From NCBI GenBank assembly GCA_973895155.1, contig OZ316896.1, forward strand, positions 18,216,754 through 18,280,753: a DNA stretch of 64,000 nucleotides, given 5' to 3'. The notes under the pieces were generated by a model. The model saw only the letters and a program-made list of their open reading frames with translations. It did no database searches and was not told the DNA's origin. The number at the start of each line of letters is the position of its first letter. Positions within the stretch are counted from its first letter, which is position 1. The DNA comes from Marsupella aquatica. Lineage: Eukaryota; Plantae; Marchantiophyta. Positions 3,918 to 59,218 of this stretch are shown here, one piece after another. The position numbers and the translations under genes were made by a program.

Positions 3918-6900
3918 TTGTCTATGAAAACCCTGTTTTGCTCATTCAATCCATCAAGAGACTAATGGATCAATGGTGACACCTAATGATCTAAATGATG
4001 TCCTCTCCTAAGTATCATTCTTTGGAAGTTGTCAATTTAAGATATTAGGCCTCTGAACCCAAACAGTGATTCGGAGATTTGACCTACAATGAGAAATTAT
4101 CCTAAATTGGAAATCAGTTTCAGTTGTAGCCAACTTGATTCAAATTAAAAGAAGGGGAACAGCTCTAAGGTCTATAAATTCCTACACCTTCAAGTTCCCA
4201 CTCACTGTGACAGTAGTCCACTATGTTTTTTCATGTCTTGTTTCTCTGTCCACTACTTGTCTAGTTTACCATTCAAAGATTGTGAGCAGATTTGCCAAGT
4301 ACATGCCACATAACTTTCTGACCATCAATCCTCTTTCCACTGTAACCGGCTGTAACCCCATCAAGTCAAACCCAGTCCATCTCTACCCTCTTTGTCCCAA
4401 AATTCCACCATAGATTGCCATGATTCTATATTTTGCAATAGCTTCTACTCACTTGTGATCCTCTATAAACCCAACTGTCTCTCCCATCACTGTTCCCACT
4501 TTCTGACCTTCTGGAGTGGAATTATCAACCATTACGATCCTTGGCTGCCATGATCTTTGGTTACCAATGACCATTGTGATCCTTGGCTTCAATTGCCCAT
4601 AAGCATCTTTTACTACCATTGATCAGAGCAATCGTTGGCTACTAAGGACAAAATATGTTGCTACCATAGATCTAACTAAGGATTCTTTCAATTAATCAGT
4701 ATCATGTTTTCAGATTAGAATCTAGCCTTGTACACCCTAAACAAAAGAACTAACTAAAGGTCCATGAACTAATTTATGGTTTGGCAATATTGTAAATATA
4801 GATTTAACATGTCGTGTGCCCTTCACTACTTTTCTCTCTGTAATATTATGTATTATAGATAGGAATGCCCAGTCCAATTTGGATTGTAGAGGTACGCACC
4901 TTAGATCTCCTCTATTTCACTAAAATAATAGAAAAAAATTCCTAACTAAGCCTTTAAACATATTAATGCCTTGTTACAAGTACATTATGGGCAATTATAG
5001 CCACTCAAAACTTGTGCTATTAATAGCCCTATTTTTCTGGGCATTATGGTCCACAGTGCCATGTTAATATATACTTAAATCCTTGCACCAGATCTTTCTG
5101 TCTATAGGTTTCTGTATTTTATGGAAGAGAATGTTCATCATTTTAAGATTTGTCGTCTACTTCTCTCTTGTACGAAAGTAAAATCTGAACTTGCATGAAA
5201 TTGGGGTTTGTCTTCAAGTGTGAAGAAAGGAGAAACACAACAAAATACAATAGGATTGAAAAATCTTCCAAGGCAGGGATAAAAGTTTTTAACTTTTGTT
5301 GCCGGGACATTGTAGCCTAGAACACCCTCAAAACAATGTGTTACTATACACTTAACGCCCTTTATAATTTTTGGTGCTTTATAGAAAGGAATGCATAGTC
5401 CATGCAAGGCATTTATTCCTAGGTCTAAAGGTACCATGTAACCCTGGGTAGTCTAACCATAGTCAATTGTTTGATTAAGGTTAGATATACTAGGACTATA
5501 TAATTCACTAGCAGAACTTAATTAGTGAGCAAAATTTAGGTTCATTGTTATGGAACCAATTGAGAGATGAAAGTCAAAGCCTAAAATGTGAAGACTTGAT
5601 AGGGCTGATAGGTTCAGAGTTTATTAAAACACTCTTGTGTGTTCATGTAGAGGTAAGCTTTGAACAAACTTTGACGACGTGAACACGTAGGCTATCTCCT
5701 GTGGCAATTACTTGTCCCTGGGTCCCACTTATTTTCTTGTGATCCATCACTCTACTTGGGTGGCCTTCACATCTACCTTGGTGGTCCAATCTCTCAGTTA
5801 AATAACAAGTGTCAATTTTCAAAGTCTCACTGGTGGATCCATTCAGGCCACCATAATTAGTCAATGATATTAGTAAACTAAGTTGAAAAAGTGAGAAAAG
5901 GGGACCATCTTGGATTCCCACAACTTCTGGGACAATGGCAGTGTCTGAAGAAGTTGACCGTGGGGGTGTGGGATCTGAGCTATGAACTTTCAAGTTTTGA
6001 GCCAGAAGAGGATTTACTTAGGGCTGTCTCGTATGCAAACCGTCCTAAAAAATGGTCCTTATCTAAATTGCACGATCGAAATTCTTTTGTCCTGCTATGT
6101 GTAAGGTGCACTAATGATTAATTGTCTCAATTTCTTGTTTTTTTGTCATATCTTGACACTGTTGTCTAAATATTTCATTCTGATTTTAAAGGAGGGGACC
6201 TCAAGGGCAGGAAAGTTTCTAGACCTTGCCTTTAGTTCTCCACTTTGTATGCCATAAGCCCAGGTCAATATTTTACTGCCACGTGTGGAGTTGAGGGCCT
6301 AAAAAGCCAAGGACCTCACATATGCAAGATAACTCTTGGCCCTTGGTGCCATATCTTGGGAGGAACCCACGTTCCTACTCTATCCTCCTGGACCTCCCTT
6401 GGTTGTATCATTCTTGGGTAAGTGCCCCCAAAAAGCACATGCATGTTATTTTCATTTTTTAATAGACTCAGGTAGACCCGAGTCATTGTCCTGTCTTGGT
6501 CCTCTTGAGGAAATCACATGGGTGAGGAGTGGGGGTGAGGGTTCTTTATTAATAGTCCCTCTGCACGCGAAACGTTTGTAACCTACTTTGTGTTTACCCT
6601 AGGGACTATCAGTTTACTCAATTAATAAATCATTATTGAAATTTTCAATGTCTAGTAACCTACACACAAACTTGCTTGATCAGACATGACGGCTGGCTCT
6701 CTATTGACAACAAATGGCACCCAATTTAAAAAAGCAGCACAAAAGAGAAGATTTGACATACAACACTTTTTCAAAGTTTTCGAAAGCAAATACCAGGACA
6801 TACAGGCAGCCTGAGTTGACTAATAGGTCCAGTTCTAGAAACGTAAGAAAACTACAAAAAGTGATACCAAAACAAAGATGTAAAACACTGATTGATAATG

Positions 6901-9839: not shown

Positions 9840-11990
9840 TGTCACTACAATTACTTCAATAGATGTAAAGAAACTAAGAGAGCAAACTATGGACAATTGT
9901 CGACTTGTCCCAAAGTGTATCATAGATACGAGGTGCCTTTATGTAGAGTATTTCCTGCATGAAGGAGGAGTAGAATATTGTCTTGCTCTATTAGGGCGTC
10001 TCAACCCTATAGCTTTGCGGGCTCCTTCCGGTCACCCGGATGCCTCAGGTCGCTTCCTGAAAATGAACACCGGGCCCCAAAATCGGGTGCTCAAAAAATG
10101 GAGGTTGAACCTTGACTCGAACCTAATTTAAGTCAGTCCATGACGGACAGAGTCTAAGTCCGGTTTATTAAAAAAACCGGTAAAAAATTTGCGGGAGTGA
10201 ACTCGGTGGGCCGACCACCTGATTCGGACTACCCGGGTCGTCCAAATCAGGTGGTCGGCCCACCGAGTTCGCTCATGCAAATTTCTTACCAGTTTTTTTT
10301 ATGATCCGGACTTACACTCTGTCCGTCATAAACTGACTTAAATTAGGTTTGAGTCAAAGTTCAACCTCCATTTTTGGAGCGCTTGATTTTGGGTCCCGAT
10401 GTTCATTTTCGGGAAGCAACCTGAGGCATGCGGGTGACCGGAAGGAGCCTGCAAAGTTATAGAGTTGAGACGCCGTAATGGATTAAATATCTTCTGTAGG
10501 AACCATAGTTTAAGGTGGAAAATGCAAAAGGCCAATTGTGCAAAGTATCTAGAAGTGCGAAGTCTTTTGAGCTTGCACTGATAACATACTTTTATGTATG
10601 AGTGCAAGATGTATTGGGCTGCAATTATGGCATCCCTTGGCAGCCATAATGTAACTGGATGTTGACCCAGTACCTAATATGAAAAATTTAAGGTCACTTC
10701 TAACTCTATCTGATCTTTCTCAGTCACTGGATTTCTGGGTTGGTGATCATTGCTACAATCACTACAATAGATACAAAGAAACTAAGAGCAAACTATGGAT
10801 AATTGTCATGACTTGTCCCCAAGTGTGTGATTAATACGAGGCGCCCTTACGTAGAGATTTTCTGCATGAAAGAGGCGTAGAATATTGTCTTGCTGTAATC
10901 CATTAAATATGTTCTGTTTCAAAACATACTTTAAGGTGTAACATGCAAAATTGCCTTTTCGGCAAAGTATCTAGAAGTGCGCAGCCTTTTGCGTTATAAC
11001 ATACTTTTTTATAATCCATAAGTGCAAGATCTATTATGGCTGCAATTATGGCATTCCTGGACAGCCATAAAGTACCTGAGTGTTGACCTAGTCACGAAAA
11101 TGACAAAAAAGTCAGGTCTAACATATTCACTCTAACTATATCTGATTTTTCAGGCACTGGATTGGTTGGTTGGTCATCATCACTACAAATCTTACTACTA
11201 TTTGCTAACAGAACCTAGACTTGGGGTCGAGGCTTCACTCTGTCCAGGCTTCTAGAGTGAAGTCTCTAGAATGTAACCCCTATGGCCCAACCAAATTGAT
11301 GTCCATGAAAAAGTTGTGATTTTAATATATCTCATGATGATTTTTGTTATCATTAACTCCTATGGCCCAACAAATTAATGTCCATGGAAAGAAGGATGAG
11401 ATAATATATATCTCAACAACGAGGAGCATGCATGATGATTTTTGTCATCATGAATATTAATATTCAAAGAATGGGCATTGCATGGCCCCACCAAATTAAT
11501 GTCCATGGAAACAAGGATGAGATAATATATATCTCAAAAACGAGGAGCATGCATGAATTTGTCATCAAGAATATATATCAACATTCAAAGAATGGGCATT
11601 CAGGCTAGATGTAAAAAACCTAAGAGCAAACGAGGAATAATTGACTTGTGCTTAAGTGTATGATTGATAAGAGGTGCCTTTACCTAGAGTATTCTCAGTA
11701 TGAAATAGGTGTTAAATGTTGTCTTAGACTAATCCATTAAATCACACCTGCCCATATACAAGCCCCATTTCCTTTCTCTCTCATTAGTGCCCTATGGTGA
11801 ACTGTACTCACCATACCGGATGGAGCCCAAACACATCCATAGTAAAACCGGGAGTAAAACTGAACATGCACACTCACAGCCATAATGTAACTGGGTGTTG
11901 ACCTGGTAACTAGAATGAAAAATCAGATCTAACCTATTCACTCTAAATGTCTTTGATTTTCAGGCACTGGGATTTTTGGTTGGTTATTGG
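9840..11990. repeat. Three diverged copies of a ~400-bp unit (about 9840-10750 interrupted by a MITE, 10750-11190, 11605-11990), plus a small duplication at 11275-11605
   Basis: Shared blocks aagagcaaac, gaggtgcctt, ttgtctt, cagccataa and ttcag(g/t)cactgg. Confidence 0.8.
9994..10475. mobile_element. 482-bp fold-back MITE (near-complete palindrome), possibly Tourist/PIF-Harbinger-like
   Basis: Ends gggcgtctcaac...gttgagacgccg, arms pair to a central cccggg at 10232-10237, flanked by TTA and TAA. The paralogous repeat at about 10885-10910 lacks it. Confidence 0.88.
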
Positions 11991-29707: not shown

Positions 29708-30349
29708 TTACCATCTCCAGACCATCCCCAAGCGCTGAAAAAAGCTAAACAAACTGCCCTTCGGTACATACCCCGCAAACTTCGCCTGCCACCAGGCCGC
29801 AAAACTCCCCCCAATGGGGCCCAACTCCCCAAATCCCAGCGCCTCTACCGCCCACGGCGCCAAGCAGACCAACAAGCCCAATGTAAGAAGTGTCACATAC
29901 ACCGGATTCTCCTTCGCAAAACCGACCACTTCCTGCGCCATTTGTGTCAACACAGATGCCACCTTGTGGTATGCATCAGCCATCGCGCTGCCCATGGGCG
30001 CCCCCGCCTCGAGCAAATTCTCGAGGGCGGTCTCAAGGCCGGAGAAGACTGCGAGGGCAAAGCTTTCTATCCAGCCATTTGCGCTGAACTCTTGGTCGTT
30101 GTCAATCTTGGGGACGAGAGACTGGAGTTGAGACGCGAGCTGGGGGTCGCCATCGGAGCTGGTTAGCAGAGTTTCGAGGACGGCCTCGGCAATCTTGCGA
30201 GTTTTCTGGTCGATAGCGTTGGGCCGCTGAGCGATGTATTCGAGTGAGGCGTTGCGTGAGTCGACGTTGCATAATTTGCGGTCGAGGGTGGTGCTCGGCT
30301 CGTTTGGGCCGACGAAGCGGGTAAGGATGGAGTTGAAGAAGGTAAACAT
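29708..30349 (-). CDS. Fungal-type hypothetical membrane protein (213 aa) with IFI27/ISG12-like C-terminal motif; candidate horizontal transfer
   Basis: Intact GC-rich ORF with ATG in a CACAATG context. The C-terminus LGFGELGPIGGSFAAWWQAKFAGYVPKGSLFSFFQRLGM matches my recollection of an ascomycete family. An upstream branch point, pyrimidine tract and AG suggest a 5'-UTR intron. Confidence 0.8.
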   Translation of the reverse strand: MFTFFNSILTRFVGPNEPSTTLDRKLCNVDSRNASLEYIAQRPNAIDQKTRKIAEAVLETLLTSSDGDPQLASQLQSLVPKIDNDQEFSANGWIESFALAVFSGLETALENLLEAGAPMGSAMADAYHKVASVLTQMAQEVVGFAKENPVYVTLLTLGLLVCLAPWAVEALGFGELGPIGGSFAAWWQAKFAGYVPKGSLFSFFQRLGMVWRW

Positions 30350-30459
30350 TGTGTTGTGGTTTTGCTTGTTCTTCGATGTGGACACAGAGCTTCTGTCAAT
30401 CAGAAAGAAGAGAAGAAGAATTGATTAGTAACGATGAGCGAGACGATGAGGAAGTATCG

Positions 30460-33927: not shown

Positions 33928-34366
33928 TGTTGAGCATAGACGACGATCGCAACGGCAAGCCCATGAACCATCCAACGCACAATAGTCGACACAAGAGATA
34001 CGTGGTTCACCTCCTTGAGGCTATGTCCACGGGAACACACAAGAGAGCTTTACTGAACTCTAAGCCCGTCGGCTATACCGAGTCTCCACAGTGTAAGCTC
34101 TCCCTATCTCTCAAGTGGCTCCATAACAATGAGTCTTGGTTCTCCCTCTCCAAGCACACATGCCTCTTATGATATAGTGTGCAACTTAGTTGTACCTAAC
34201 CACATAGTTGTACCTAATCACGTAGTTGTACCTAACCACATAGTTGTACCTAATCACGTAGTTGTACCTAACCACATAGTTGTACCTAATCACGTAGTTG
34301 TACCAACCCACGTTGTTGTACCAACCACGTCATACCTAACCTAGACGTAAGAGTAAATACCCAACA
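33928..34366 (-). repeat. 3' LTR of the Copia element (439 bp)
   Basis: tgttgag...cccaaca, adjacent to the PPT and a direct repeat of 44679-45117. Confidence 0.96.
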
Positions 34367-34380
34367 ATCTTCCCCTTGAC
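34367..34380 (-). promoter_or_regulatory. Polypurine tract
   Basis: Minus strand GTCAAGGGGAAGAT immediately precedes the 3' LTR. Confidence 0.88.
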
Positions 34381-34556
34381 TCTGGTCTAGGGGAGAATAA
34401 TACTGCCAATGTATATGATCCCTCAGCGGGAAGTTCTGGACAAAAACCAAACCGGTTTCCCTCTCTAACTAGAGCAAACCAGAACTAAGCCGTAGCCTAA
34501 TACATAGGAATGAGGAAGAGCATATATCAGTAATTACAATGAATGTTAAGAAAACT

Positions 34557-36597
34557 CTACTTGTGATGCAATTGCAAAACCTGCAATACGTCACGGTGTC
34601 TAGAGAAACTCTCCAAAGGAATCACTTTGGTAAATGCGTCAGCCGGGTTGAGTTTACCATCAATCTTGACTAGCTCAAACAAATTATCAGACACAGCCTG
34701 CCTGATAAAATGGTACCTAACGTCAATGTGCTTCACTCTGCTGTCCATCACCTGGTTCACAGCAAGGTGGAGCGCACTTTGACTATCACAATGGAGCTTC
34801 ACATTCCCCTGTGGCAATCCCATTTCAGTGATAAGTCTATTCAACCAAATCGCTTCCTTTGTTGCTTCCGCAGCTGCAACATACTCCGCTTCTGTAGTAG
34901 ACTGAGCAATACACTTCTGCAAAGTAGACCTCCAACTTATGCATCCACCGCCAAGTGTGAACACGTATCCTGTTGTTGATCTCTTTCGGTCCAAATCTTG
35001 TCCATAGTCAGAATCAACATAGCCAATCAATGATTTAGCATTCTTTGCATTCGCATCAAATAAAAGACCATGATCCACGGTACCCTTCAAGTACCTGATA
35101 ATCCACTTCACTGCTTCCCAATGTACCTTCCCTGGATTCGACATGTACCTGCTCACCTTGCCCATAGCCATGGCAAGATCAGGTCTAGTGCAAGTCATCA
35201 AATACATGAGACTCCCCACTGCCTTGTCATACGGAACCTTTGACATCAACCCCTTCTCTGTGTCATCCGTATGACAGAATGCTGATGATAACTTGAAGTG
35301 TGGAGCCAACGGGGTACTTACTGGTTTGCTATTCCCCATGTTGAACCTTGCAATTACCTTCCTCGCATAACTGCTCTGCGTCAACCATAGCTTGCCAGCC
35401 TCCAAGTCCCTAGTGATCTCCATACCCAAAATCCTCTTAGCTGGCCCTAAGTCCTTCATCTTAAACTCTGCACTAAGCAGTGCCTTGAGCTTAACAATCT
35501 CAGACCTATCCTTGGCTGCAATTAGCATATCATCCACATAAAGTACTAAAACAATGAACCCAAAGACAACATTATTTACCGGTTTCAAATACACACAAGG
35601 GTCAAATACACTTCTGTGAAAACCTTGTGACCGAATCCAATCGTCAAACCGCTTGTTCCACTGTCTTGGTGACTGCTTCAACCCATACAAGGATTTCAGC
35701 AATCTGCAAACCAATTCCTCCTGTCCTCTCTTCACAAAACCTAGTGGTTGTCTCATGAAGATCACCTCTTCCAATGTGCCATAGAGGAAAGCTGTGACAA
35801 CATCCATCTGATCTAGCAGCAGACCAAACATTACAACAAGTACACACAATAGTCGTATTGTAGAGTACTTAGCAACTGGTGAGAAGACCTCATTGTAATC
35901 CACACCTTTCTCTTGTGTGAATCCCTTTGCTATCAATCTAGCCTTGTAGACCTTCGATCCACCTCCTATAGAATTAACTTTTAACTTGTAAATCCACTTG
36001 CTGTCCACCACTTGCTGACCCTTAGGCAGCTTAACAAGCTCCCAAGTTTTGTTGTCCTTTAGTGACTGCATCTTCGTTTGCATTGCTGCAGTCCACTTCT
36101 GCTTCTCCTTTGAAGCACTTGCCTCATGAAATGAAGAAGGTTCCCCTTCTTCCAAAATTAACGCATCACCCTCATCATCAGTTGTAAAATCATCCTCTTG
36201 CAGTTGAGATGAATCAACCCACTGTCCATACCTTGGTGGAGCGCGTACAGTGCGACCAGATGTTCTTCTAGCCGATGACTCCGGTTGATCTGCGTGTGCT
36301 GGTACAATTTGAAGCTCAACAGCATCCACTTGCTGCTCACCAGCATCAACAAACTCCTCTGGTTCCTCTGGCACAGGAACCAGCTCCATAATTGGAGCAA
36401 CTCCTTCTCTCCGGTCATGCACCTCATAACCAATCTCCCCCTCAACGAGATCCGGGATAGGAGATTTTCCTTTGTCAGTACGGGAGACCTGAGTATTCTC
36501 CCCCTCCTTCAATAATCTGGATTCATTGAAGGAAACATCCCTACTGACAACGAGCTTACAGGCAATAGGATCCCATAGCCTATAGGCTTTCACACCA
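34557..36597 (-). CDS. pol: Copia pol, 3' part: integrase C-terminus, reverse transcriptase and RNase H
   Basis: KAYRLWD, YKARLIAKGFTQ, QMDVVTAFL, KSLYGLKQSPRQW, YVDDML, STTEAEY, KHIDVRYHFIR, ADAFTK. Joins the 5' part in frame once the insert is removed. Confidence 0.96.
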
Positions 36598-39500
36598 TGT
36601 GGTGCGTCCCATGGCTCCCTAAACCCAAGAAACCCCCCAGCTCAAGCCGATTCCCGCAAGTTTCGTGCTTGGCGAGGCTGTTTCCGCGGCTTAGCGGCAT
36701 GGGACGCTGCTAACCTTCTACTACTACTATTAACATTTTACACACATATACTGGACAGATCCTTCATCGGGTCATGAGATACGTAGCCGGCCTACTGTAG
36801 GCCTTCCCCTGTCTTCCCCTGTCTTCCCCTCCGTCTTGTTAGGTATGTTTGGATTCCGCCGCCGGAATGATCCCCAATAGGCTTGGTTAAGCCGCTAAGA
36901 CCTCTCTCAGCTCGACACATCCAACTCTCACACCCCTGCTTACTTTCCTTCCTTCTGCTGATGTGGGCACTCTTCACACAAGTTAATGCGACACACAAAT
37001 AGCAAAATGACTCATTCTGACTGAGTCATACCATGCACTTGCCATACAAACAGTACATCTCATACACAAGTTCTGCGAACTAAGCCGTGAGGCCAACTCT
37101 ATTCAGCTCTTAGGCATGAGGAAACATGAATATACACAAGGGTCACTGTATGACTAACCGAGAGCTTCTCGTACTACTTGATCCCAGCCCGGCTGGTGCA
37201 AACTAAAAACTTGCTAAAGAAGAGGCCCTGAGCTCCCCGCTGCCCAGGTACTTATCCTGGTAGTGGATCCGCCATTCTTTGCATCGTAAGCCTAATCTAC
37301 TTAACAGTAATCTACTTGCCCGAATCTACCTATGTACAGCAAGGCAGGAGCACAAGTGTTGCTCCTACCAGTGGGACCGCAATCCCACTAAGCTAAGTGT
37401 CAGGGCCGCTCCTGGTTCTGATCCTAATCCTAAACGTGGAGATCCGTGCCCGCCCTGCCCACTCACGCCTCCTCCCTCCACGTCCGCCCTCCCTAAAAGG
37501 AACGGCGCCCTTGCACCGTCACGACACCGGTGGTGGATCCTCAATGGACGCCCCCAACACTTCCTCCTCAGCCACTGCCGTTGGCCCGCCTACTGACCGA
37601 TTACCTGCCCTTGACCGAGTCAACTCTCCATCGGCCTGACTGGGTCCACCTTCGGCTTCAGCCTCGACACCGGCCTCGGCAATACCCACGGTTTCGGCTT
37701 CAGCCACCCCCACGGCTTCGGCTTCCCCTTCCCCTAGGGTAGTTGGATCCTTAGCCGTGACCCTGTCTGGGGTCGGTGCTGGGTCTACCTCCTTGATCAC
37801 CACGGCCTGTGAAGTCGTATTACTCCTTGACCCTGAAGGTTTCCGCTTCTTCTTCGTTGGTGGCTCGGCAGCTGGTCCCTTCCCCTTCCCACTTACCTCC
37901 GGCACTGGTGCAGGTGGCGCGGCTTGTCCTTCGGCAATTACCACCCCTGGTAACTGGTTTGTCCCAACGGGAGATGGACCTGCTGCAGCTAAGCATTTAA
38001 ATACTGCGGCTTGTTTCTTCAGCCGCTCTGTTTGGTTGTCGGCCCGCCGCTGTAGGTTCTCCATCTTCCTCGTGATTTCCTCCAACTCCTCTTGGGTTTC
38101 ATCCAGGTCCTTACGTGCCCCCTCCAGCTCGTTTTTGGCCTCCTCCTGCTCCCTGTGGGCTTCCTCCAATTCCTTCTTCAAGGTAGCCCTCTCCTCCTGG
38201 GTTGCTCTTAGCTCCTTGTCGAGCTCTGCAATGATGACAGACTCCATCTGGTTCATCTTGGCGTAAGTCTGTTCGAGCATCTCGTCCTTCTCCCTTAGGT
38301 CGGCCTTGAAGCTGGCCGTCAGGGACGCAAGCTCCTGCTGCAGTGCCATAATCCCTTGATAGGATTTCCCTAACTCGACCTCCTTCTGCTCAAGGGCTCC
38401 GCGGATTTTCTCGAGCTCCCCTTTCAACGCCCATTCCTTTCTTTGGGTCTCCGCCATGGCCCGGCTGTTGGCTGTTATGTGGGCCTCCTCTGTATTCTTT
38501 AGCTCTTGCTTCCACTTTTCCCTTTCTTTGATCGTGTCGGCCAACTCTTCCTGCGTCTGAGTCAGTTTATCCTTGATATTCTGATTATCAGCCTGCGCGG
38601 CGTCCAACTGCCCCTGCATGATGTTCAGCTCATGTCGTTTAATCCGCAGTTCATCTTGGGCTTTCTTGGCCGCCCTTAGATCTTCAATCTCGGCTTCCAT
38701 CCTCCTAAGCCGCCGAATGACCTCGTCCTTCTTGCTTCTCTCTAAAGCCACCGCTTCTTCTAATTGGTGCTTCTCCAACTGCTCCCTATGGAAAAAGGGT
38801 CCTACCTCCAACTCCTCTCCAAAGATGCCGAGCGCAAGTTCCCCACACATCTCACCATACTCCATGGCTCTATTCTTAGCGTAGGTGGAGTAAGTAGAAG
38901 TGATCGGCATCGCCCATCGTGGCCTCTGCTCCCAAGCCGTCCTGCGGATCTCTTCAATCGTGGCTAGAGGTTTGCTTCCTTTTTCGGCTAGCCGCCTGAT
39001 GTCCTCCGGCCAATCTCCTCCTCGTAAATCCTTTTCCTTAGCCAGGGCGGCCTCTTCCTCTTGCTTGATTCGCTCCTGAAATTCCTGCACCATCTGTTTT
39101 ATGCCGTCGAAGCTCGGGGGAGCAACATCTGGTGGGGGAGACTCAGGGCTACTCTGCTGGTTGGGGTCCCCTCGCACTACCCTTGGAAGTGTGGGGACAA
39201 ACCGGCCACAGGTCCTTACTCCTGGAACGTAATGGTCCGACCCATAGCCGGAATTATCATGGCTGCAGTCCTCCACTGCCTCCTCTACCTCTTGGATTTC
39301 CGGCTTCTCCCTCTCCTCTTCCTCGGTAGGAGCTTCAGGCAATTCTGCCTCAGATTCGGAGCTTGAGGTTCCCACGTACATTCGAACACCTGGCTTGGAT
39401 TCCGGCCTGATTCTCTCCTTGTCTCCAGCAAAGGGGTTTTCTCTTGTGAGCCGGTGTAGGCCTACCTCTGTAGTAGTGTCCTGCATTGTTGCCGTTGCCG

Positions 39501-41248
39501 TTGCCGTTGTTGTTGTTGTTGTTGCCGATGCCGATTTCTTTTCTTTCTCCAGTAGTTTCAGCAGACTCTGCATGCCTGGTTGCTGCATCGGCAAGTCTTC
39601 CTTCTTGGGCCTAAACACCTGCTCGATCGTAGGACTAACAGGTGGTTGAGGCTTCTCAGCCAACGGCCTCGGCGTTGGAGCTTCCTCGGGTGCCCTTACC
39701 TGCAGGGGAAGTACCGGGGCAAAAGTCTAACCTCTGGCATACCGGCACAACAGCGGCATGTGATAGCCAAGCCGCGACACGCTCCCCATGCCGATTACCT
39801 GCTGCTCCTCCTTTAAGATCTTCTTCAATTGGTTGAGGAGGTACCCGTTGTAGTCCCGGCTTGGGTCTGGCCTTTCTGCCAGATAGACCTGTGCTTTGCC
39901 GATCTCTGCCCTCGGCAAGTTACAATGCATGGTCACCCGCAAGAAGTCGATCATCTCTCCTATGTGCGGGTTGGTGCAGGTGTTCCGGAAGAAGCCATTC
40001 TTCGTTGATGGCCCGGGGAACAACCGGAACTCCTTGTCAGGCAAGGTCTTCCTGGTATCAACTTTGGTCTTATTGCCCATCGGCAAGCCAAACACTTCGG
40101 CAATCACCTTGGGAGTAAGATAGAAATCCTTCCCATATATCCTCGTGCAATTGGTCTCGGGTTCCCATGACCCCACGAATTCTAATAGGTCTGACTCCGG
40201 TACCTCCGGCTTCAGCCATGGTAATCTTACAAAGGCCTCCAAGCCGGATCCGGCCATGAAGCCTTGGTACTTCTTGGTCTGCATGGCCGTAAAGCATGCA
40301 TCCTCCTCCCGTGCAAAATGTAGTTGCACCTCCACCGGTAGGGTTGCCGCCCAGCCCTTCCAGGTGTCATCCCTGGTTGGAATGGCCTTGATGGGATCGA
40401 CCTCCTCCTCTTCGGCTTCTCCCTGCCTCCTGCTCTGCTGCTCGGCTGGCTTCTTTGGTGCCGCCGACCTCATTCTTTTTGCCGGGGTGGCTTCATCGTT
40501 GACGGCTCCCTTCCTCTTCATCTCTGCTGCCGTGGAGGTCTCTCCTAGCACCGTTGCCCGGGTCCACCTTTCCGTGCTACCCTTTAATTCCCAGTGTATG
40601 TCGTTGCAGTTCTTGATGGCCTCTCGGATGCCGACGACGCTGTCTTTGCAAAACAGAAGATCGTCGAGTTGATTGGAAGTAGGCGTCCACAGGAACTCGT
40701 CCTTGATGAGTTCGCCTCCTAAGAAAGCCGTCTTCTGCAGCTCCCACAATCGAGCGAGCTCCTGCCGTTCTCGAGCTGCCCTTTCTGACTCCTCGTCCTC
40801 GTAAGTCTTGATGTACTCAGTTGCCCGTTCGAACAGGCATCCCCAGAAATGTGCCGCTTGATTGACGTTGCTCATACCCTCCTTAGGTTGATCGTCGGTA
40901 TCTACTCTCTCCCCGAGTGCTTGCCTAAGCAGCTGACAGTAGTTGGCCTCCCGTAGTCGTCTGCCTAGTTCGTGCTCGCAAATGAGCCACCATCTCCTGC
41001 AAGCGCTCCTTACCCCTCTCCTCTGCCGGTCCTTCTTCCCGTTGATCCTTCCTAGCCGCCGACGCTTAACGCGCCCTAACCCTAATCGGGTTTTCACCCT
41101 CAGCCTTACCTCCGGCCTCTGCCCGGGTTCCATGGTTGCCCCTAATTGTTTATATTTTCCTTGTTTTGTCACTATACTAAGGTGTTCCTAGGGTGCCTTC
41201 CTGCTTTACCCACTTAACCGGCCGAGTGATTCCTGTCTAGGCATCACA
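36598..41248 (-). mobile_element. Nested 4651-bp element with TG...CA termini and 5-bp TSD; probable giant protein-coding solo LTR
   Basis: Ends TGTGGTGC...GCATCACA (7/8 inverted match), CACCA TSD at 36593-36597 and 41249-41253. Removing it restores GYQSGVKAY. No terminal direct repeat, gag or pol was seen. Confidence 0.9.
37519..41133 (-). CDS. Accessory protein of the nested element; predicted exons 41133-39799 and 39699-37519 (about 1171 aa)
   Basis: The 481-aa and 714-aa ORFs share a frame and are separated by one TAG (39727-39729) inside a 99-nt GT..AG interval. Contains GLEAFVRLPW..LTPKVIAEVFGLP, a long coiled coil, and basic motifs PAKRMR and PTKKKRKP. Confidence 0.7.
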
Positions 41249-42485
41249 CACCACTCTGGTACCCAAGAAAAACACATTTCTTGGAGGTAGGATCCAACTT
41301 GGTCCTATTCTGCTTCGGTGTGAGAGCATATGCATCACTTCCAAAAACTACCAAGCCATGATAGTCTGCTTGCCGCTTATAGCGCATCTCAAACGGCGTT
41401 TTGAAATTGATAGCACTAGAAGGAGAAAGATTTACCAAATAAGCTGCGGTATTGACAGCTTCTGCCCAAAATTCTTGTGGTAAACCTGATTGGCTCAACA
41501 TACTCCGTGACCGCTCCAACAGTGTCCGATTGAGCCTCTCAGCGACACCATTCTGCTGCGGAGTATAAACTGTGGTGAGATGGCGAGTTATCCCCTGTTC
41601 TGAACAGTACTCTTCAAATTCCATTGAAGTGTACTCCCCGCCGTTGTCTGACCTCAGACTCTTCACCCTTGTATCCAAACACTTGATCGTGTTTCCAGTC
41701 TGATTCTCCACCTGGGCCTTCCACTTCTTAAAAATGGACAAGACATCAGACTTATGCGTCATGAAATAAATCCACACAAATCTTGAGTAATCATCAATAA
41801 ATGATACATAGTACAACTTTCCAGAGTGTGAGGGAGTCGGGGATGGACCCCACACGTCACTATGTATGTACTCAAGAACCACTTTGGAACGATGAGTTCC
41901 AACACCAAAAGCACGACGATGCTGCTTTCCAAGAATGCAATGCTCACAAAACTCTAATTTACAAGATTGCAAATCAGAAATGAGTCCATTCTTCCGTAAG
42001 ATAGCCAAACCCTTCTTACTCATGTGGCCTAGCCGTGAATGCCACAGTTGAGTCATCTCCTCGTGAGACTTGGTTACATTGGCCTCTCCACATACAATAT
42101 TGTCCTGTAACACATACAAATTCTTTTGTCTACTCCCCTTCAAAATCACTGTCTCTCCCGACCTGACTTGAAGTTCACCATCAATAACGCTCCAATGATG
42201 ACCATTTGAATCCAACACACCGAGTGAAATCAGATTCTTACGCATGCCAGGTACATACCTGACTCCGGACACTGTGCGCACAGCGCCATCAAACATTTGA
42301 ATCTTCACAGACCCAATTCCCTCAATTTGACAGGAGTGATCATTTCCCATCAGAACTGAACCGTTTGAAATAGAGTAAGAACTGAAAAACTCACGAATGT
42401 AACAAATATGAAAAGAGCAAGCACAATCAAGAATCCACACATCATCTGCTCTCCTAGATGACGTGCACAGGGGATACCCCCGGCT
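41249..42485 (-). CDS. pol: Copia pol, 5' part: protease, GAG-pre-integrase region and integrase core
   Basis: WILDCACSFHIC, WHSRLGH..CEHC, HSDVWGP, RSDNGGEY, PQQNGVAER, KKCVFLGY. Confidence 0.95.
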
Positions 42486-43526
42486 TCATAAAACATACTC
42501 ATCATTGAGTAAATCAACTTCTCCATCAGCCCTAGCCACATTTGCCAATGAAGTTTCCGCTGCCTTTCCCTTACAGTCTCGCTTGAAGTGTCCAACTTGG
42601 TTGCACTTCCAACATGTCACCTGCCTCCTCTGAGGGGATTTATCCTTGGACTTAGATCTGGATTTAGATCTAAACTAGGTTCTACGGTCCCCAGTTGGTC
42701 GCTGCATACCCCTCCCACGGTTAACATTGAGGGCAGCACCAGATGATGAAGGCTGTGATGTGATGTGCATCTTCTGCTGAAGATCATCACTAAGCAGAGA
42801 ACTTACCACGTCATTATATGAAATGGTATCCCTATCACGATGCAACAACACTCGTGATAGGGACTGGTAAGATGGAGGCAATGAACTAAGAAGCTGCAGA
42901 GCCTTCGTCTCATCATTCAAAGTCTCCCCAAGGTTTTCCAAGTCAACGACCATGTCGTTGAAAGCATCCACATGGTCTTGCAACTTTGTACCGGATTCCT
43001 TCATCCTGAAACTCATGAGTTTGTAGGAAGTGTAGAGCCGGTTTGACAACTCCTTGCGGTGATACTTGCTCTGCAATTCTGCAAACAAGGACATGCAATC
43101 CTTATGTGCACCCAACTGCTTGATGATGGGAGGCATGAGATAGAGTGTAACACACCACACTCCCTGCTCCTGCATGCGGTCCCATTGTTTCTCATCAACA
43201 TCGTCTTCACGAGGGCTCAGCAGTTGGCCCATCCCTGACGCATAGAGCACTCCCTTCACCTGCTTCTCCCATAGCAAGTAGTCAGAGCGCCCATCATACT
43301 TTGTCACTTCATACTTGGGTCCCCCAAGCTTGAAAGTCCCCATCTTCTTCTTTGGCACTACCGTGAGCTCCGGTAGTAGTACTGCTTCCTCCACCACACG
43401 CCGCACCGATGATGGTATCGGTGTCACATGCTCTTCCTCCTGCTCCTCTCTCTGCCCCTGAAACCGCCGCGATGATCCTCGTGCTTCAAGTTCCACGTCT
43501 TTGAAAAATTCCTCCGAATCACTCAT
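42486..43526 (-). CDS. gag: Copia gag with an internal TAG at 42675-42677 before the zinc knuckle and a TGA at 42486-42488 in frame with pol
   Basis: YDGRSDYLLW and LLSSLPPSY. After the TAG the frame continues to CWKCNQVGHFKRDC and ends NDEYVL*. Confidence 0.9.
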
Positions 43527-44664
43527 ATGAGAAAATCACAAAAATTGTTGTTTTTCACAACTTCTCAAAAAACTCGAAACTCAACACCGCTGCGTAGCCC
43601 ACAAAGCTAGGAGTCCAATAGTGAAAACCGAAATCAAAATTGAAATTTGACGGAAAAGTTATTCAAATTTCGGTCGAGGTGGGTAAAACCTTGGGAAACT
43701 CCCCCGTTTTGACCACCTCAGGGAATAACCAAAATACCAAGTACAACCCGTTGTCGAAATTACGATGTGATTGGTGCGCCGCATTGCCAACTTCAATGGC
43801 TACGACCTCGCCAAAAAATAACCAAAAAAGTTACCGTTCGGCGGATGAAATCTTTGTCGGACGGTCAAAAAATAGCTCTCTGGTTTTTTGGAATATTCTA
43901 TGACCCTTGTACAGGCCCTGTGGGAATTTTGGAAGAACAATCGAGGGGCTGACACGTGTCCTCAAACCCCCAAAACCCCCTACCACCCTTCGTCGTCGAA
44001 ATCTGGTCGCGCGCGCAGAAAATACACACGGTAGAATGTACCCCTCGATACCAAACGCAAGATATCTCACTCGGGTTTTGACGAAATCAAGATCTGATTT
44101 CAGATTTGGAAACTAGACTCCGAGGCGGTGAAGATCGATATAAGAAGCACCCAAAAAGAGGAAAGAACAAGGGAGAAAAAAATTGGTAAAGATGACAGAT
44201 TTCTCTCAATTGCCATAGCCAATTTCGAATCAGTTTTTCAAAGAGAAAAAATGGTACCTTGTCAACAACGAATGTTGATCAATTGCACTTGGTGCCGTCA
44301 CCAAGTCCAACAAGGTAATTGATTTTGCTTAGCCTTCCTCTTTGCATCAAAGAGCCAATCCCGGACTCAAAACAATCGTCTTGCCTCAATCTCTCCGTTG
44401 AGTCAAAACACTTGACGCTTCTCCCTCCGAGTCGATTGCCAACTTTCTTCACAAAATCCAGAATGACGAAAACTTAGATCTCTCTGCACCACGAGCTCCG
44501 TTCAGCGATTTCTTCACACCGTTAGAAAGCTCTTGCCCTGATCTATCCGTTGAGCCCATAAACTCCAAGTTCCATGCGACGGAACTCCGGGAAATCCACC
44601 GATACTCAACGCTGGAAAAACCGTAATGAAATCCCGTCACGAACACACGTCACCTCCCAAGCAT

Positions 44665-44676
44665 GCTCTGATACCA
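44665..44676 (-). promoter_or_regulatory. Primer-binding site complementary to initiator tRNA-Met
   Basis: Minus strand TGGTATCAGAGC, 2 nt from the 5' LTR. Confidence 0.95.
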
Positions 44677-44678
44677 AT

Positions 44679-45117
44679 TGTTGAGCATAGACGACGATCG
44701 CAACGGCAAGCCCATGAACCATCCAACGCACAATAGTCGACACAAGAGATACGTGGTTCACCTCCTTGAGGCTATGTCCACGGGAACACACAAGAGAGCT
44801 TTACTGAACTCTAAGCCCGTCGGCTATACCGAGTCTCCACAGTGTAAGCTCTCCCTATCTCTCAAGTGGCTCCATAACAATGAGTCTTGGTTCTCCCTCT
44901 CCAAGCACACATGCCTCTTATGATATAGTGTGCAACTTAGTTGTACCTAACCACATAGTTGTACCTAATCACGTAGTTGTACCTAACCACATAGTTGTAC
45001 CTAATCACGTAGTTGTACCTAACCACATAGTTGTACCTAATCACGTAGTTGTACCAACCCACGTTGTTGTACCAACCACGTCATACCTAACCTAGACGTA
45101 AGAGTAAATACCCAATA
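44679..45117 (-). repeat. 5' LTR of the Copia element (439 bp)
   Basis: Appears identical to 33928-34366 except C>T at 45116. Confidence 0.96.
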
Positions 45118-47533
45118 CTCATGAAACCATTGGGAAAAGTAGATTATTCTGCTGCCCTGCAACGTGTCAAGTGCACAAGGCTGGTCGTGTCCCTCCATTG
45201 TTGATACCCCATGAAGCTTATATGGAGGTCCAGCCCTTGCCCCTGGAACTCCATAAATTCTGGTACAAGAGGGGTTCTGGCATGTAACACTTGCTCACTT
45301 ATATGCTCACTGGCATGAGTCAGGTCCAGGGCTGCAATCCTCAGGGCTGCTCACATGCCAGTTGCAAAACTTTACTCTTGCACAAAGAACATGCTAAGTA
45401 AGTTTCCGTTGTAACTTCTGCCCATAAACAAGAAGTGTGTGAGTGTCTTCACTGATCACTATATATTATCTCCAGAGATGTCTGCCTATATGATGCTCCA
45501 ATTGTTCCATGATTTTAAGAGAGGAAACTAATGACATACAGAAGTTCATTCTAAAGCTTGGACCATGCAAGCTTGGGGGTTTCATTTCCATAAAAATGGC
45601 ACATCACATGCGACGAAATATAATTTTGTTTTATTGGTTCTAATGGAAGACTTGAGAATTTTTTCATAAAAACAATAGGGTTTTTTAAATCCAATTTTGA
45701 GACTTATAAGTCCATTAGTGTCTTTTCAATCAATTTTTAAGAATATTCCAAGACTATTCTAACTTTTAGGGGTCAATTTTTTTTAAAAACTTACATTTTA
45801 GGGGGCCCAAACCTAAAAACATTGAAGGTGATGGGGAGCCCCCCATATAGTCAGACCCCTGAGAATGCAAGGGACACAGGTGGTTTAAAGGTTATGCATA
45901 ATTATACTAATGTCCTATTTACAGGACATAGTGAGATATAATGGCTTGGAATTAAAAACAAGAGCTTGAGTTTTGAGGGGCTATCACTGCCCATAGTGCT
46001 ATCACTGCCCATAGTGCTATGGAAACAGGACTTTACTACACTTGAAGGCCTAAGAGATTTTTATTCTTACGAGCTTATGTGAAAGTAGAGGAGAATCTTG
46101 CTAAAAAGGTGATCCAAATCTTGACAGGGTGTTGTTCTCCATGAATGCACTCAAAAATACAAACTTAAGGGAAAAATCATGAAGGGCCTAAAGATTCCAA
46201 AATGCTTGACAAGTTCAATTATCCTCAAATTCAATGCTCAAAACTTTAATTTTTCTAAGACATTATTTCATTCACAAGTGATGGAGTAGCAGCTTAAACA
46301 TACATGAGAAACCCTGATGGGCATAAGTGGAATGTTTAATTTTCTTAACTTGCATATTACTATGTTTTACACTTACTGTTGCTCCATTCATAGCAGGTGA
46401 AATATGCCTTTTAGTGCTAGTTGAAGGTTTTCAGTTCAATATTTCTCCATGCGAAGGTCTCTGTTTTCTTTCAACCAAAAGAGCTGTACGTGTTCCCTTC
46501 TCGCCAGGGCAGCTGTATGTATAGCCTCTTACACTCCTATGTCATGAAACTGTAAGGTTCTAGAGTGCCCTGAGACAAGCAAGTTCCTTTCTCCGGTCAG
46601 GTAACAAAGTCAAACATCCATCCAAGCTAGCACGAAGGAAGGGCTCGAAGGAAGGGCTCCTAAAGTATACCCATATTCCCCGTGCCCATCCCTACTCACA
46701 AGCAAATCCCTACTCACAAGCAAGTAATCTAAATATCAAAGGAAAATTATGGCTTCTAGCTTCATTGTAGGGAGTAGGTAATGCGGAGTAGACTTAGATG
46801 GCCAGTTATAGTGTAGAGTGCTCTATACTTCATTTTCTTTAGGGTTGGGAATAGGGCAAATTTCAAGGTTTTCCCCTTTTGACGCAGGTGGGGATTGTCA
46901 CCTTGTAGGAAGGAGAAGGTGCTAAGAATACTCTTTATCTGACCTTGTCACATAAGTGAAGTCAAAGCATGAAAGAACTCGACTTTCCCCTCCTTCCAAC
47001 GCTAGCAAATGGAAACACCTAAATCGAAGCCATAGGGTCCTTCTAAAGCTATCCCAATCTGCTGCATAAGCCAACTTTTGACGGAACATTGGCGGAAAAC
47101 AACTACAGTAGTTAATTAATGGAGGACTAAAAATCTCCTGAAATTTATCCAGCAAAAGATTTAATGGGGCCCCTCTAGGTAAGGATATCAGTGACGTGCC
47201 CCTCACTTTTTGAAATAGACTTCCTGGGCCCCTTGTTCCTACAGCCCTTCCTCATGACCTGTGAGATTATTTCCCCCTTTTAATTTTAACAGCGTATAGT
47301 TACTATGTACAGCTATGTATGTCAATCAATCAGGTGTACTCCTTGGACATATTTTTCCATGTATTTTTGTTTGGAAATACTAACATATAGTACATACACA
47401 GTACTTAGACCCTGTCACTCCTCTAAATGCACATCAAAATATGACATATAAGGTGTTCAATATTCCTCTAGACCATCCAAAATCTACTTATTTATTTTAA
47501 ATGAATGAGTGCACATTGTATTTTATCAAAATA

Positions 47534-48264: not shown

Positions 48265-51200
48265 TGAATGAGTGCACATTGTATTTTATCAAAGTTTGAT
48301 GTGTGATTACTGGTAGGGCTATTCATTATTTTTGAGTACTTATGCGCTGAAAGTATGTGTATTTACTCTCTTTACTTATTACTTGTTTGTCAGCCACTCA
48401 CATACATTATTTTCAACTATGTTTCAACTTTCACAGGTGTTTAGACATTTCATTCACTAGGATTGGATTGATGAATTCCAGGTAAGTGGGTATGTGTTCT
48501 TTGATAGTACCATGTAGACTAAAGTCTTGGTAGATTGTGATGTTTTTGCAGAATTGAAATAAGCAGAATTTGGGAGTAAAGCGGCATGCTGAACTTGTCA
48601 ATGTCTATAGTTTTTACAGATTGGACTGGTGGTCACAGAGTGTGACACACAAAGTGAATTTTTTTAGTGTCACTTTGAGTAAATATAGAGACATGAATTG
48701 CAGTATGATTTTGATAGCTAATTTTGTGGTTGTTGCACGAACACTGAGCTCAATATTTTAAGGTCATTTAACTGCTTTTACATTTGTTATTATGTGCATG
48801 CTATATGAATTCAATTAATGCCTTGTGAATTCAATTAATGCCTATATAAAAAAAGAATTCACAAAAATAACACCAAAGAAATGCTCACATCTGATGTGAT
48901 TATCTCCAAAAAAACCTTTGGCAAAATAACATCAAAGAATTGTTCAAATCCCATGTAATTTATTCACAAAAAACAACTTAAAAAATAGCACCCATAGAGC
49001 ACCCAAAACCATTGGTTCACCTTAGGAAAGTTCAAGCAAGACATTATTTGGAGAAATATTTTAAAGCATGAGTACTTCAAGAAACTGATACGGAATAACT
49101 AATTAGTCCGTGGACCCCTTGTTGATCCAAGGAATGTGTGTAAATTTGTTTTTTCTTTGAACAAAGATATGAATTTTTCAGCCAAAAGGACTGGGCATAC
49201 TAGAAACCCTGCCAATTGCTGGAGTGAAACTGCTAGCCGTGACCCTATAGGCATGTAGTTACAATTATAGAGATACTAGTGAGCGAAAAGGTAAACTGAA
49301 GGGCCATTTCCTCAGTCTGTCTCCAAAAAAGACTACTCTTGGGCTTCTAACGTGGAAATTTAATCTCTAATTTACTTTTACATAAAAGCTGATATTATTA
49401 GAAGCTACTATGCTGGGGTGGTGGACTGCCAAAAATTGTACAACATTGTGCTATCAAAATAGGTTTTGTTTTGTGACATTAGCTAAATTTTTGAAAAACT
49501 AAGAATATCAAAATGTTTCCATCATGTTCATTGGACACACACACCTCAGACACGGTTGGTCCAGAGCCTTTTAAATTTTGTGTTGCTCTGCTTTGATTCG
49601 AAAACTGAACATTGTAATTTTGTGCAACAACCCAGTAAGAAACAACAAGCGATCCTCTAGACAAGTGCATCCGGGCCTGGTGCGATTGCAGCTGTTCGAC
49701 TCAGAAAGTTAATGCTCTTTTGGACTCCTGTGATTACCTTGGTGCGGGCCTTGGTGGCCAAATAATTCTATCGAAGTCTCCAAACTAATTCTGTAAAACT
49801 TCCGCAACTAAGAATTGTATGCTCGATAGCGCTTCTTATCCATTGGTCGACAACAAAGGAACATTATAATTGCAGACTAAGACCGAGCCTACGCACTATT
49901 ACTTGTGCAGGCCCAGCTTATGTGAGTACCACCAATCATCCAAATTGAAAAACATCCCATGTCTTCATCTCAGAAAAGCTTCCATCTTTGACTCTTCGAT
50001 CTGAACAGGATAAGCAAGAAGTGACGGGCATGACAAAGAATCAGGCACCTGATTAGGCAGCTCCGTGACACGTAGCCACAATTGCTTATGACATCTCCTG
50101 CTCCAACCGCTTGTCACAAAATGAGACACAACGACCTGAACGATGAGGCTACCAATGTTTCGAATGCACATCCTATCTTAAGGAAATCCTTCATGACAAG
50201 CCCTCGTTGATCCTCCTGTGGATTTACAAGAGAAATCCCGTATCCTTCACAAATCCATCTATTTTCTGGTATGGATACCAAAATTTGTTGGCTTCAACAT
50301 ATCCTACTATACAACCAAACAAAATCTAGAAGACAAAGAAGCAATTTTGCAGAGCTTGTTCAATTCTCCATATATATCTCTTGGATGGCTGATCATCGGT
50401 TGAAAGTTTAGAATCAATGGTCCTGTTCTCAAAGGCTCCTCATTGCATTTGGAGTGTCACTGAGATGACTACTCACTGATCCCAACCTAAAGGCCATTAT
50501 CGAACCACGTGATGCTAAGGGAGGAGGGAGGAGGGTCCTTAGCTTCTTTTGTTCCGGCGGTTTTGTTATTTGGGCAGTTACAGGAATACAGTTACTTTTA
50601 ATGTTGAACACTATTTATTTTTATAATTTTTTTTTTATAAATGTAAGTAAAGGGATTATGGGTGAATGTTTTTAATCCTGTCCTTTGTATCAATAGGTTT
50701 GGATGAATTACTTTTAAGTATTCTAACATTACGTGTTGACGGCACGACATCCATAAAATTACACAAAAATTGACGTAAACAAGATGGAGGAGAGGTTATT
50801 CAATGCGCAAACATCTTGTTTCATGTGGATGTTGCTGATGTGGAGTGCTGTGGAGTCTCGAATTTTGGAAGGGACCTCTAGTGGGGTCAGTAAAGAGAAG
50901 GAGAGTAAGTGGTAGGTACCCTAAATACTATGTATATTGCATAAGTATTTCAAATCAAGAATAAAATGAACATGGGCTTGAAGGGGCTAAGTACTTCGTA
51001 TGTACTTTATATAGTATTTTCAAACAAAAATATAATTAAAACTTACTTCTAGAGAATATATGTCGTGGATTGATGTACATAACCGTAAGTAAGATGTTAG
51101 AATTAAAAAAAGGAAAAAAAATAATCACGCAGGTCATGAGTAAGGGTTGCAGGGACCGGGGGGCCCAGGTGAGGGGCTCGTAGGGAAATTTTTACCTAGG

Positions 51201-52224
51201 GGGGGGCATCAAATCTTTTGCTGGAAATTTATCCAAAAGAGAATATAAAAACTTTTGGCCACTAAAAACAACACGTGGTTTGGGAATACACGTGCTCTAA
51301 AGATCACTTTACTGAGGTCAAGCCTCACTTTTTCATGGGCATGAATAGTTTTTTCCTGCCCCTACTGTCCATAAAAAACGTGGAAAATATGGTAAACAAA
51401 TAACACTAGATTACGCTGTACTCTCTCTGAATCTGAATAGTGCAGAGTGACGTGTGCAACTATAGTGGCTGGCAGGATTGGTACACCATGGGTGTCAGAA
51501 TGAGATTGACCGTGTTTTAGTACACTAGTGCCCAAAGACACTCTGATTGTTTCAATTATCATCCATCCTCCCAAATTGTATCTAGCCTAGGTTTCCTCCA
51601 AATTGTATCTACAGTAGTCTAGGTTATGTAAAGCACCCAAGGCCGAGCTGCCTTGGTCCATGGCCTAACAGGGGTTGTCAGCTTAGCTGCTGCCTGCAGT
51701 GCCACGGCTCATCATGACTACTCTTGCTTCCCCCCTATGTGGCTCACCCATAAACCTTGCGTCTCCCAATTGGGATTCATTCCCCTTGTCACTACTACAA
51801 ATCTCTGACCTTGCAAATCCACTCTCCTGTTGACCTTCGTGATTTCTTTAGCTTGTGTAGAGAGCTCTAGTCATGAAAAGGAAGATGAATCATGGCAGGG
51901 AGATGCAAGGTAGATGGGCAAGTTGAAGGAGGAAGGTGGTTGTAATCAGCTGGAGTTGATCTTATCACCTAAATGGAAATCATCTACATCTCTTTTTATC
52001 ACCTAAATGGAAACTGGCAAACATCTAAGAGTGTGGTCTAGGGTAACCCATGGCCTATATGAGGTCATAATCCCAAGGGCGGTAAGGGGGTTACAGCCAT
52101 GACCCCCAAACAGCCCATGCTTTAGCAAGTGTATCCCCTGACATTGTCTTTGTACCATGTCTGTGTTTGACCCCACTTGCAAGGCTTGGTGGGGACTATG
52201 AGACTTGGAACCCAGACCAGGTTG

Positions 52225-58286: not shown

Positions 58287-58328
58287 GGCTCGTTTGGAAA
58301 TGGAATGCAAAAGCACAAGACCATTCTT

Positions 58329-58402
58329 CGACCACGGAGGGATTCGAACCCTCGACCTTTAGATCCGAAGTCTAACGCGCTAATCCACTGCGCTACGCGG
58401 CC
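58329..58402 (-). tRNA. tRNA-Arg (anticodon UCG)
   Basis: GGCCGCGTAGCGCAGTGGATTAGCGCGTTAGACTTCGGATCTAAAGGTCGAGGGTTCGAATCCCTCCGTGGTCG folds into a full cloverleaf. A T4 Pol III terminator follows at 58309-58312. Confidence 0.96.
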
Positions 58403-59218
58403 AGTCATGGTGATTTCGAGACAAAAACTTAATAAGTAAAACTCCTTGTTTTTTTCTCCCCTGGACATCGACCAGATTACGGTTCAGTTTTAACTCATTC
58501 CAGTTTAAGCAGGAGAAAAATCATGGAATTTAAAAACTCCTGCATTTTGGCTGAACTTTGTTCAGTTGTGATGGGGGCCCAAAACAGCCCAAGCCTGTAT
58601 AATTTTGGATTGCATCGTCAGAAGTATTGTATGAAGTATTGTCAAATTCAACAGGAATGCAGTGTTCAGCCTATGAACACAAACCTTTGGTCCCAGGCCT
58701 GGTATATAGGGGGACAAATTCACGGGAAACAACTGAAGGGCCTTCAGGCCCCCTCTCCCATCATGAGTATCTGTCGCAAGAGTTTTGGTTTTTTTGGTCT
58801 CTCATGGGATTTGTAGCTTGGATGGGATGATTTTAAAGGTTGGGCACTCCTATGGGATTCTGGTGTGTGGTGTTAGATCCCTCCCATAGGACCTTTGGGT
58901 GCTCTCCAAGGTGCTCTCTGCTCTCTATGACATTATGTGAATAAAAAGTAAACATTCTATTTGAGCAGAGCATATCATATGGGACCAAAAAACAAAATTG
59001 GGGTGAGCAACCCCTTCTCATATTTGTTTCTGTTTTTAGGAAAGCTACAGCGCACCCAATGGATTCACCTTGGCAAAAACTAGTGGGGCAACGAGAAAAA
59101 CACAGACCCAAAGCTCCAGGCTTGGGCGAACCCAAACCAAAAATCTCATGGACCCAATACTTAAAATAAACAAACTGCCTATTAAGGTCCAGAGTGGACC
59201 GCGCAAAGAGGCATGCAT

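Follow-up and report, generated by a model that had tools for sequence, protein, structure and literature searches.

Structure of the locus

We analysed a 64,000-nucleotide stretch of the genome of the liverwort Marsupella aquatica (contig OZ316896.1, positions 18,216,754 to 18,280,753), hereafter the window, whose coordinates are used throughout. It contains a Ty1/Copia retrotransposon on the minus strand, the integrase of which is interrupted by a 4651-bp insert. The insert is probably a solo long terminal repeat (LTR) and consists mostly of one open reading frame (ORF). The elements at the locus are as follows.

33928–45117, minus strand: host Ty1/Copia element, with Pfam matches to gag, protease, integrase, and reverse transcriptase (RT), and a target-site duplication (TSD) of CTCAT
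33928–34366 and 44679–45117, minus strand: LTRs of the host Copia, 439 bp, identical at 438 of 439 positions
42675–42677 and 42486–42488, minus strand: two additional in-frame stops in the host gag-pol, read from the sequence
36598–41248, 4651 bp, minus strand as sense: insert, probable solo LTR, with TG...CA ends, a TSD, no internal repeat, empty-site contigs, and, in a single contig of run X6, a motif of the primer-binding site (PBS) type past 36598
36593–36597, unstranded: left copy of the TSD CACCA, read from the sequence
41249–41253, unstranded: right copy of the TSD CACCA, read from the sequence

The insert begins with TGTG and ends with CACA, and an exact CACCA is present on both flanks. 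The inverted repeat at the termini comprises just 7 of the first 8 bases. When the insert is compared with the window by blastn, neither a terminal nor an internal repeat emerges (best E 0.63), and a Pfam scan finds no retroelement genes inside the insert. It thus presents the TG...CA ends and the single TSD of 4–6 bp of a solo LTR. The codon phase of the host Copia is identical at both CACCA copies, and the Pfam SH3_retrovirus domain of the host is interrupted by the insert, with profile positions 1–44 on one side and 43–70 on the other. An earlier, sequence-only reading of the window had proposed the span and length of the insert, its ends and TSD, a short imperfect inverted repeat, the absence of direct terminal repeats, and the restoration of the host integrase frame upon removal; all of these are confirmed.

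Fourteen public sequencing runs contain the stretch or part of it, six of them with at least half of its words; they carry several organism codes, and none is recorded as RNA. Contigs were compared for six of the 16 listed runs (X1, X2, X4, X6, X7, and X8). The empty target site is found in contigs that omit 4656 bases (4651 plus 5), five in X1 and three in X2; therefore, the insert is neither a chance nor an assembly join. Positions 36598–41248 are a real repeated insert that splits a plant Copia retrotransposon, and the insertion was made by an LTR-type integrase.

The host Copia is a young element. Its LTRs are nearly identical (438/439) despite the two extra stops in gag-pol, and the insert differs by about 0.8% from its nearest indexed copies. 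The Copia shell, carrying the solo LTR along, may have been copied anew in trans, assuming that the best-matching run represents the same population. In run X7, a loose end at 40395 corresponds to the leader of the host Copia near 44251; a junction between the two families exists elsewhere in that organism as well.

Other copies of the insert

All bins of the insert are covered in X1, X2, X4, X6, and X7, and 17 of 30 in X8. Summed contig depth, which is no measure of copy number, spans about four-fold in X1 and X2, with the end bins within the range of the ORF bins and no two-fold excess at the ends. Foreign flanks start exactly at 36598 in three contigs of X6, and exactly at 41248 in one contig of X8 and one of X6. 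Three X2 joints place a terminus of the insert within another copy. The whole 4.65-kb unit is repeated, with the same terminal bases at other sites. No joint between the 5' 0.1 kb and the 3' 0.9 kb is found among the best-supported 15 of 186 joints, none of which suggests a common short-LTR form.

A PBS-type junction beyond 36598

One X6 contig, of which 30 letters of flank are displayed, runs 205 letters past 36597. On the minus strand it reads the terminal CA, four T, and then TGGCGCTAGATGGAGGGGG. In this contig, the 3' end of the insert sequence abuts a PBS-type motif, as the 3' end of an LTR would.

As a control, metagenome contigs were scanned for the motif with one position free, giving at least 120 matches in redundant loci. 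A CA ends 1–5 nucleotides (nt) upstream of the motif or its one-base variant in 102 of the 120 matches listed, compared with 29% at random positions. Seven of 11 ORFs chosen downstream of these motifs (from nine loci) match Gypsy gag or pol families, and one has a second RNase H between the usual RNase H and the integrase, as in Tat. Antisense ORFs with Transposase_28 are present in two of the loci (2 of 30 ORFs scanned). The one-base variant of the motif precedes Tat-type gag-pol in metagenome loci, in line with the PBS type of Tat and the wider Ogre-Tat-Athila (OTA) lineage. The PBS-type motif beyond 36598 makes this position the likely 3' end of a Tat-type LTR, in which the ORF would run in the sense direction.

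No relative of the insert or of its protein is found within 119 metagenome PBS loci, the terminal 21-mer of the insert has no match in metagenome contigs, and the PBS motif has none in viral contigs. An 11-base likeness to the element end in one metagenome locus (L012) was set aside as chance. The motif presumably corresponds to tRNA-Asn, an assignment that could not be confirmed, and ARAGORN detects no tRNA in the metagenome PBS loci.

Nine metagenome loci (L009, L023, L033, L035, L037, L040, L046, L074, and L111) carry a T variant of the motif after a shared T-rich context that has no CA. They perhaps represent another class of elements with non-canonical LTR ends.

The reading frame and its predicted protein

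The reading frame and the features of its product are as follows.

37519–41133, minus strand: 1205-codon reading frame interrupted by a single stop; candidate starts are the ATG at 41133 and Met87 (40875), the latter more likely
39727–39729, minus strand: in-frame stop particular to the present copy; another base in other copies in five runs
40396–40875, minus strand: conserved N-terminal region, residues 87–246, with PAKRMR, resembling a nuclear localization signal (NLS); 35–40% identity to P0005, P0007, and P0009
39733–40395, minus strand: conserved core domain, residues 247–467; 42% identity to P0001 (E 2.5e-48), Atlas 0.88–0.89, no Pfam match
38002–38784, minus strand: predicted coiled coil of about 260 residues, read by eye; only sub-threshold coiled-coil Pfam matches
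37840–37863, minus strand: NLS-like PPTKKKRK, from a motif scan
41149–41154, minus strand: TATAAA at nt 95 of the element, candidate gene promoter; such a hexamer is expected about once by chance
36598–37518, minus strand: non-coding 3' part, candidate main promoter, R, and U5, with TATATT at 37134 and a TGTA-rich stretch; function putative

From the ATG at 41133 to the stop at 37519 the frame spans 3615 bp, or 77.7% of the insert, which agrees with the 78% in one collinear frame given by the sequence-only reading, though that reading left the in-frame stop unmentioned. The coding frame contains two stops (internal and terminal), compared with 24–58 in the other five frames. At 39727–39729 nearly all depth in X1, X2, X4, X6, and X7 carries another base (X8 is uncovered there), indicating that the stop is peculiar to the present copy. 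The sequence-only reading had proposed that every solo LTR would leave a complete expression cassette behind; because of this stop, the present copy is not an intact one and would yield only a truncated product.

Relatives align only from about residue 91, which makes Met87 the likely start. Among the indel rows listed (12 of 27 and 12 of 23), the net length change within the ORF is 0 or +6, and indels of 1–2 nt occur at six places in the 0.92-kb non-coding part. Two TATA-like boxes lie on the sense strand, at nt 95 and nt 4115; neither is above chance. Past the ORF there is a TGTA-rich stretch, and sites resembling splice donors are located at 41109, 39699, and 37896.

The predicted protein is about 1120–1200 residues long. 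A search of 1.84 billion representatives with its N-terminal piece gave 20 matches at E ≤ 0.001, 19 of them plausible, the best with 42% identity over residues 247–467; P0017 was dropped as a repeat-driven bacterial match. Relatives at 35–42% identity retain the same two domains, and, of ten relatives checked, the two that carry an organism name, at 25% identity, come from the liverwort Calypogeia fissa. Together with the other genes of the window, this suggests a non-seed land plant, probably a liverwort, as the source. The Transposase_32 and Athila ORF-1 clusters are top among named Atlas clusters (0.88–0.89, below the 0.9 mark), a weak lead that the core domain could be related to Transposase_32 or Athila ORF1. 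No Transposase_28 match is found, and the ORF is sense to the PBS, unlike the antisense ORF between pol and the 3' LTR that is typical of Retand. No transmembrane segment is predicted (highest 19-residue hydropathy 0.72 and 0.85), so the ORF is not env-like.

The AlphaFold model of the core is poor (pLDDT 55). Nothing was found with it in PDB, wide PDB, or viral fold searches; a sequence search of the PDB was also empty. Word-based protein searches returned nothing at 257–819 aa, at 820–2340 aa, or, using alignment, at 1379–3935 aa. Taken by its sequence features, the product is predicted to be a nuclear protein.

A probable solo LTR containing a gene

We consider it probable that the insert is a solo LTR with a gene inside, the interpretation that the sequence-only reading had put forward. 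The PBS-type motif at one end, the identical termini elsewhere, and the absence of a deep short-LTR joint among the joints listed support it. The solo LTR was likely left by a Tat-type Gypsy element. A parent with two 4.65-kb LTRs would have entered the Copia integrase, and LTR–LTR recombination would have reduced it to a single LTR that is mostly gene. The parent layout would be LTR-PBS-gag-pol-polypurine tract (PPT)-LTR, with the gene in both LTRs.

Within the LTR, the gene would lie in U3, like sag of mouse mammary tumour virus (MMTV), with the promoter of the genomic RNA in the last 0.5–0.9 kb and the gene promoter upstream near nt 95. We lean slightly towards this arrangement with two promoters. 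Alternatively, transcription would start near nt 125 and the gene would lie in R/U5; the placement in U3 is favoured because this alternative requires an R region of about 4 kb.

Several observations weigh against a gene-bearing solo LTR. The link to the PBS comes from one contig of one run (X6), the organism code of which is unlike those of the best-matching runs. The spacer at the X6 junction is 4 nt, compared with 2–3 nt in 99 of the 120 control matches listed, and the exact X6 variant accounts for 13 of those 120, only two of which lie within 5 nt after a CA. A PPT is not seen at 41248 (in the one flank listed there; 293 further loose ends lie outside the listing), and paired LTRs and the parent gag-pol were not recovered from the short contigs. 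The protein matches no Pfam family, and hhalign comparisons with single Transposase_28, Athila, and DUF1985 proteins are not significant (E 0.05–0.6 in the Transposase_32, Athila ORF-1, and PMD-domain tests). The length of one X1 joint within the ORF is not divisible by three, and 15 of 37 variants listed are synonymous, compared with 10.9 expected (P = 0.10). Finally, two X6 joints, each in a single contig, leave out the greater part of the ORF (one from 36853 to 40888 at depth 10.9 with a side of 28 letters, the other from 36651 to 39817 at depth 8.7 with a side of 30 letters); therefore, the PBS-bearing LTR in X6 could be a shorter form.

Alternatively, the insert could be a non-autonomous derivative or recombinant of a short-LTR Tat element. 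In it, an accessory ORF that was once internal would sit between the two outer halves of the LTRs, with amplification of the whole in trans, and the ORF would be no LTR gene of an autonomous parent. The two X6 joints and the missing paired repeats and PPT fit such a derivative, as do the X6 depth of about 30 over 36576–36889 compared with 4–10 over 37204–37517, and the internal position in which excerpts of two papers (PMC7264820, PMC11963269) place the extra ORFs of plant Gypsy elements. However, the sides of the X6 joints are 28–30 letters at 80% likeness, a range flagged as unreliable, and no 5' 0.1 kb-to-3' 0.9 kb joint is found among the best-supported 15. Furthermore, retrotransposition requires a terminal repeat and a PBS within the unit, and the insert has neither; the accessory ORFs of Retand are antisense, whereas this ORF is sense to the PBS. 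We regard the derivative as unlikely, though it is the most probable of the alternatives. If the parent LTRs are short, the finding reduces to an ordinary derivative of this kind.

Another possibility is a solo LTR with a passenger ORF that entered it a single time and has been carried since, neither needed nor expressed. The stop in the present copy, the non-significant synonymous excess, and the lack of a Pfam family would agree with this, but other copies in five runs lack the stop, the frame is maintained over 1200 codons with ORF indels that, among those listed, are mostly frame-neutral, and the two domains are preserved in relatives at 35–42% identity; we hold passive carriage to be improbable. 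A Ginger/TDD-like or other DNA transposon with its transposase lacking or lost, which the sequence-only reading had offered as an alternative, is a little less probable still. TGT...ACA ends with a short inverted repeat would suit it, as would the lack of direct repeats; however, 7 of 8 bases make no long terminal inverted repeat, no integrase or transposase domain lies in the insert, and one contig has a PBS-type motif beyond the end. An assembly artefact or chance junctions can be given hardly any weight: no listed contig crosses either host–insert junction of the present locus, but the exact TSD, the matching codon phase, the contigs with an empty site, and the identical termini elsewhere all speak for a genuine insertion.

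If the insert is a gene-bearing solo LTR, its protein would oligomerise in the nucleus and act on the DNA or chromatin of its own family as an activator or anti-silencing factor, a role that we propose tentatively, by analogy, and hold at somewhat less than even chances. Intact solo copies could provide the protein in trans. An element reduced to a solo LTR is usually regarded as neutralised; an LTR consisting mostly of a conserved gene would instead survive as a coding unit. The full proposal is more speculative, and we rate it as rather unlikely: a bryophyte Tat-type family would have moved a gene of about 1120–1200 codons into its LTR, and its solo LTRs would each keep a self-contained nuclear anti-silencing or activating gene, so that the main route by which the host deletes LTR elements would leave many copies of a helper gene.

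Other features of the window

29708–30424, minus strand: intronless frame of 238 codons with an Ifi-6-16 Pfam match; presumably fungal in look, a possible transfer or contaminant
47148–47417 and 50979–51225: two long, imperfectly matching inverted repeats with about 4 kb between them, probably marking an old transposon with terminal inverted repeats
9987–10482: palindrome with 248-nt arms, 88% complementary, without a spacer
58328–58403, minus strand: tRNA-Arg(TCG) gene

Comparison with known systems

Published systems are compared here from excerpts of the papers cited. According to these, plant non-chromoviruses typically have extra ORFs and LTRs that reach about 5 kb (PMC6317226), and liverworts contain Tat elements (PMC10508981). 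The insert resembles Tat/Retand and other OTA elements in its PBS type, 5-bp TSD, and long LTR (PMC11963269, PMC7264820, PMC6317226). Nuclear, regulatory roles have been proposed for the accessory proteins of Athila and Tat (PMC7264820, PMC11963269); their role is an open question in these excerpts, for which the insert, if correctly read, would offer a clean multi-copy test system. Like the OTA accessory proteins (Transposase_28 with an Smc-like coiled coil, PMD, and Athila ORF-1), the predicted protein combines a conserved domain with a long coiled coil and is predicted to act in the nucleus. In contrast to the OTA extra ORFs as described there (antisense, between pol and the 3' LTR), this ORF apparently lies in the LTR and in sense, it has no Pfam match to those domains, and the parent RT was not recovered.

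Ogre has its extra ORF in a 5' position. Very long LTRs, many solo LTRs, and an extra ORF are found in Ogre and in Retrosat2, RIRE3, and RIRE8 (LTRs over 3 kb, ORF0), as would hold for the present family (PMC3485330). However, ORF0 of Retrosat2 is located upstream of gag-pol and is not described in the LTR or in solo LTRs in the excerpts of that paper.

The PMD proteins (MAIN/MAIL1) and VANC are transposon-borne nuclear proteins that act on silencing; for VANC, dimerisation via a coiled coil and a likeness to MAIL1 have been predicted (10.1101/2024.04.02.587720; PMC5418596). The anti-silencing role is proposed because of this analogy, which is functional and runs via the class of Gypsy extra ORFs; no homology to either is shown for the insert protein.

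No precedent for an LTR-embedded ORF in plant retrotransposons came up in exact-phrase searches of the open-access literature, which did not extend to the large supplementary table of PMC6317226; as evidence of absence, this is weak. Excerpts of PMC12885004, PMC13570524, and PMC3601003 hold nothing decisive for the comparison. If our reading is correct, solo LTRs of this kind would be annotated as orphan host genes.

Lentiviral nef is a retroviral gene embedded in the LTR, as is sag of MMTV. The latter lies within U3, lengthens the LTR, and is present in both of its copies (PMC9147501), an analogy for which no homology is claimed. MMTV has an LTR of about 1.3 kb, and its Sag protein is a membrane superantigen (PMC9147501), whereas the insert is 4.65 kb and its product is predicted to be soluble and about 1120–1200 residues long. 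The LTR-embedded gene would be a plant parallel of this retroviral gene position, in an LTR about three and a half times as large; what is unusual is the position of the gene, not the length of the LTR.

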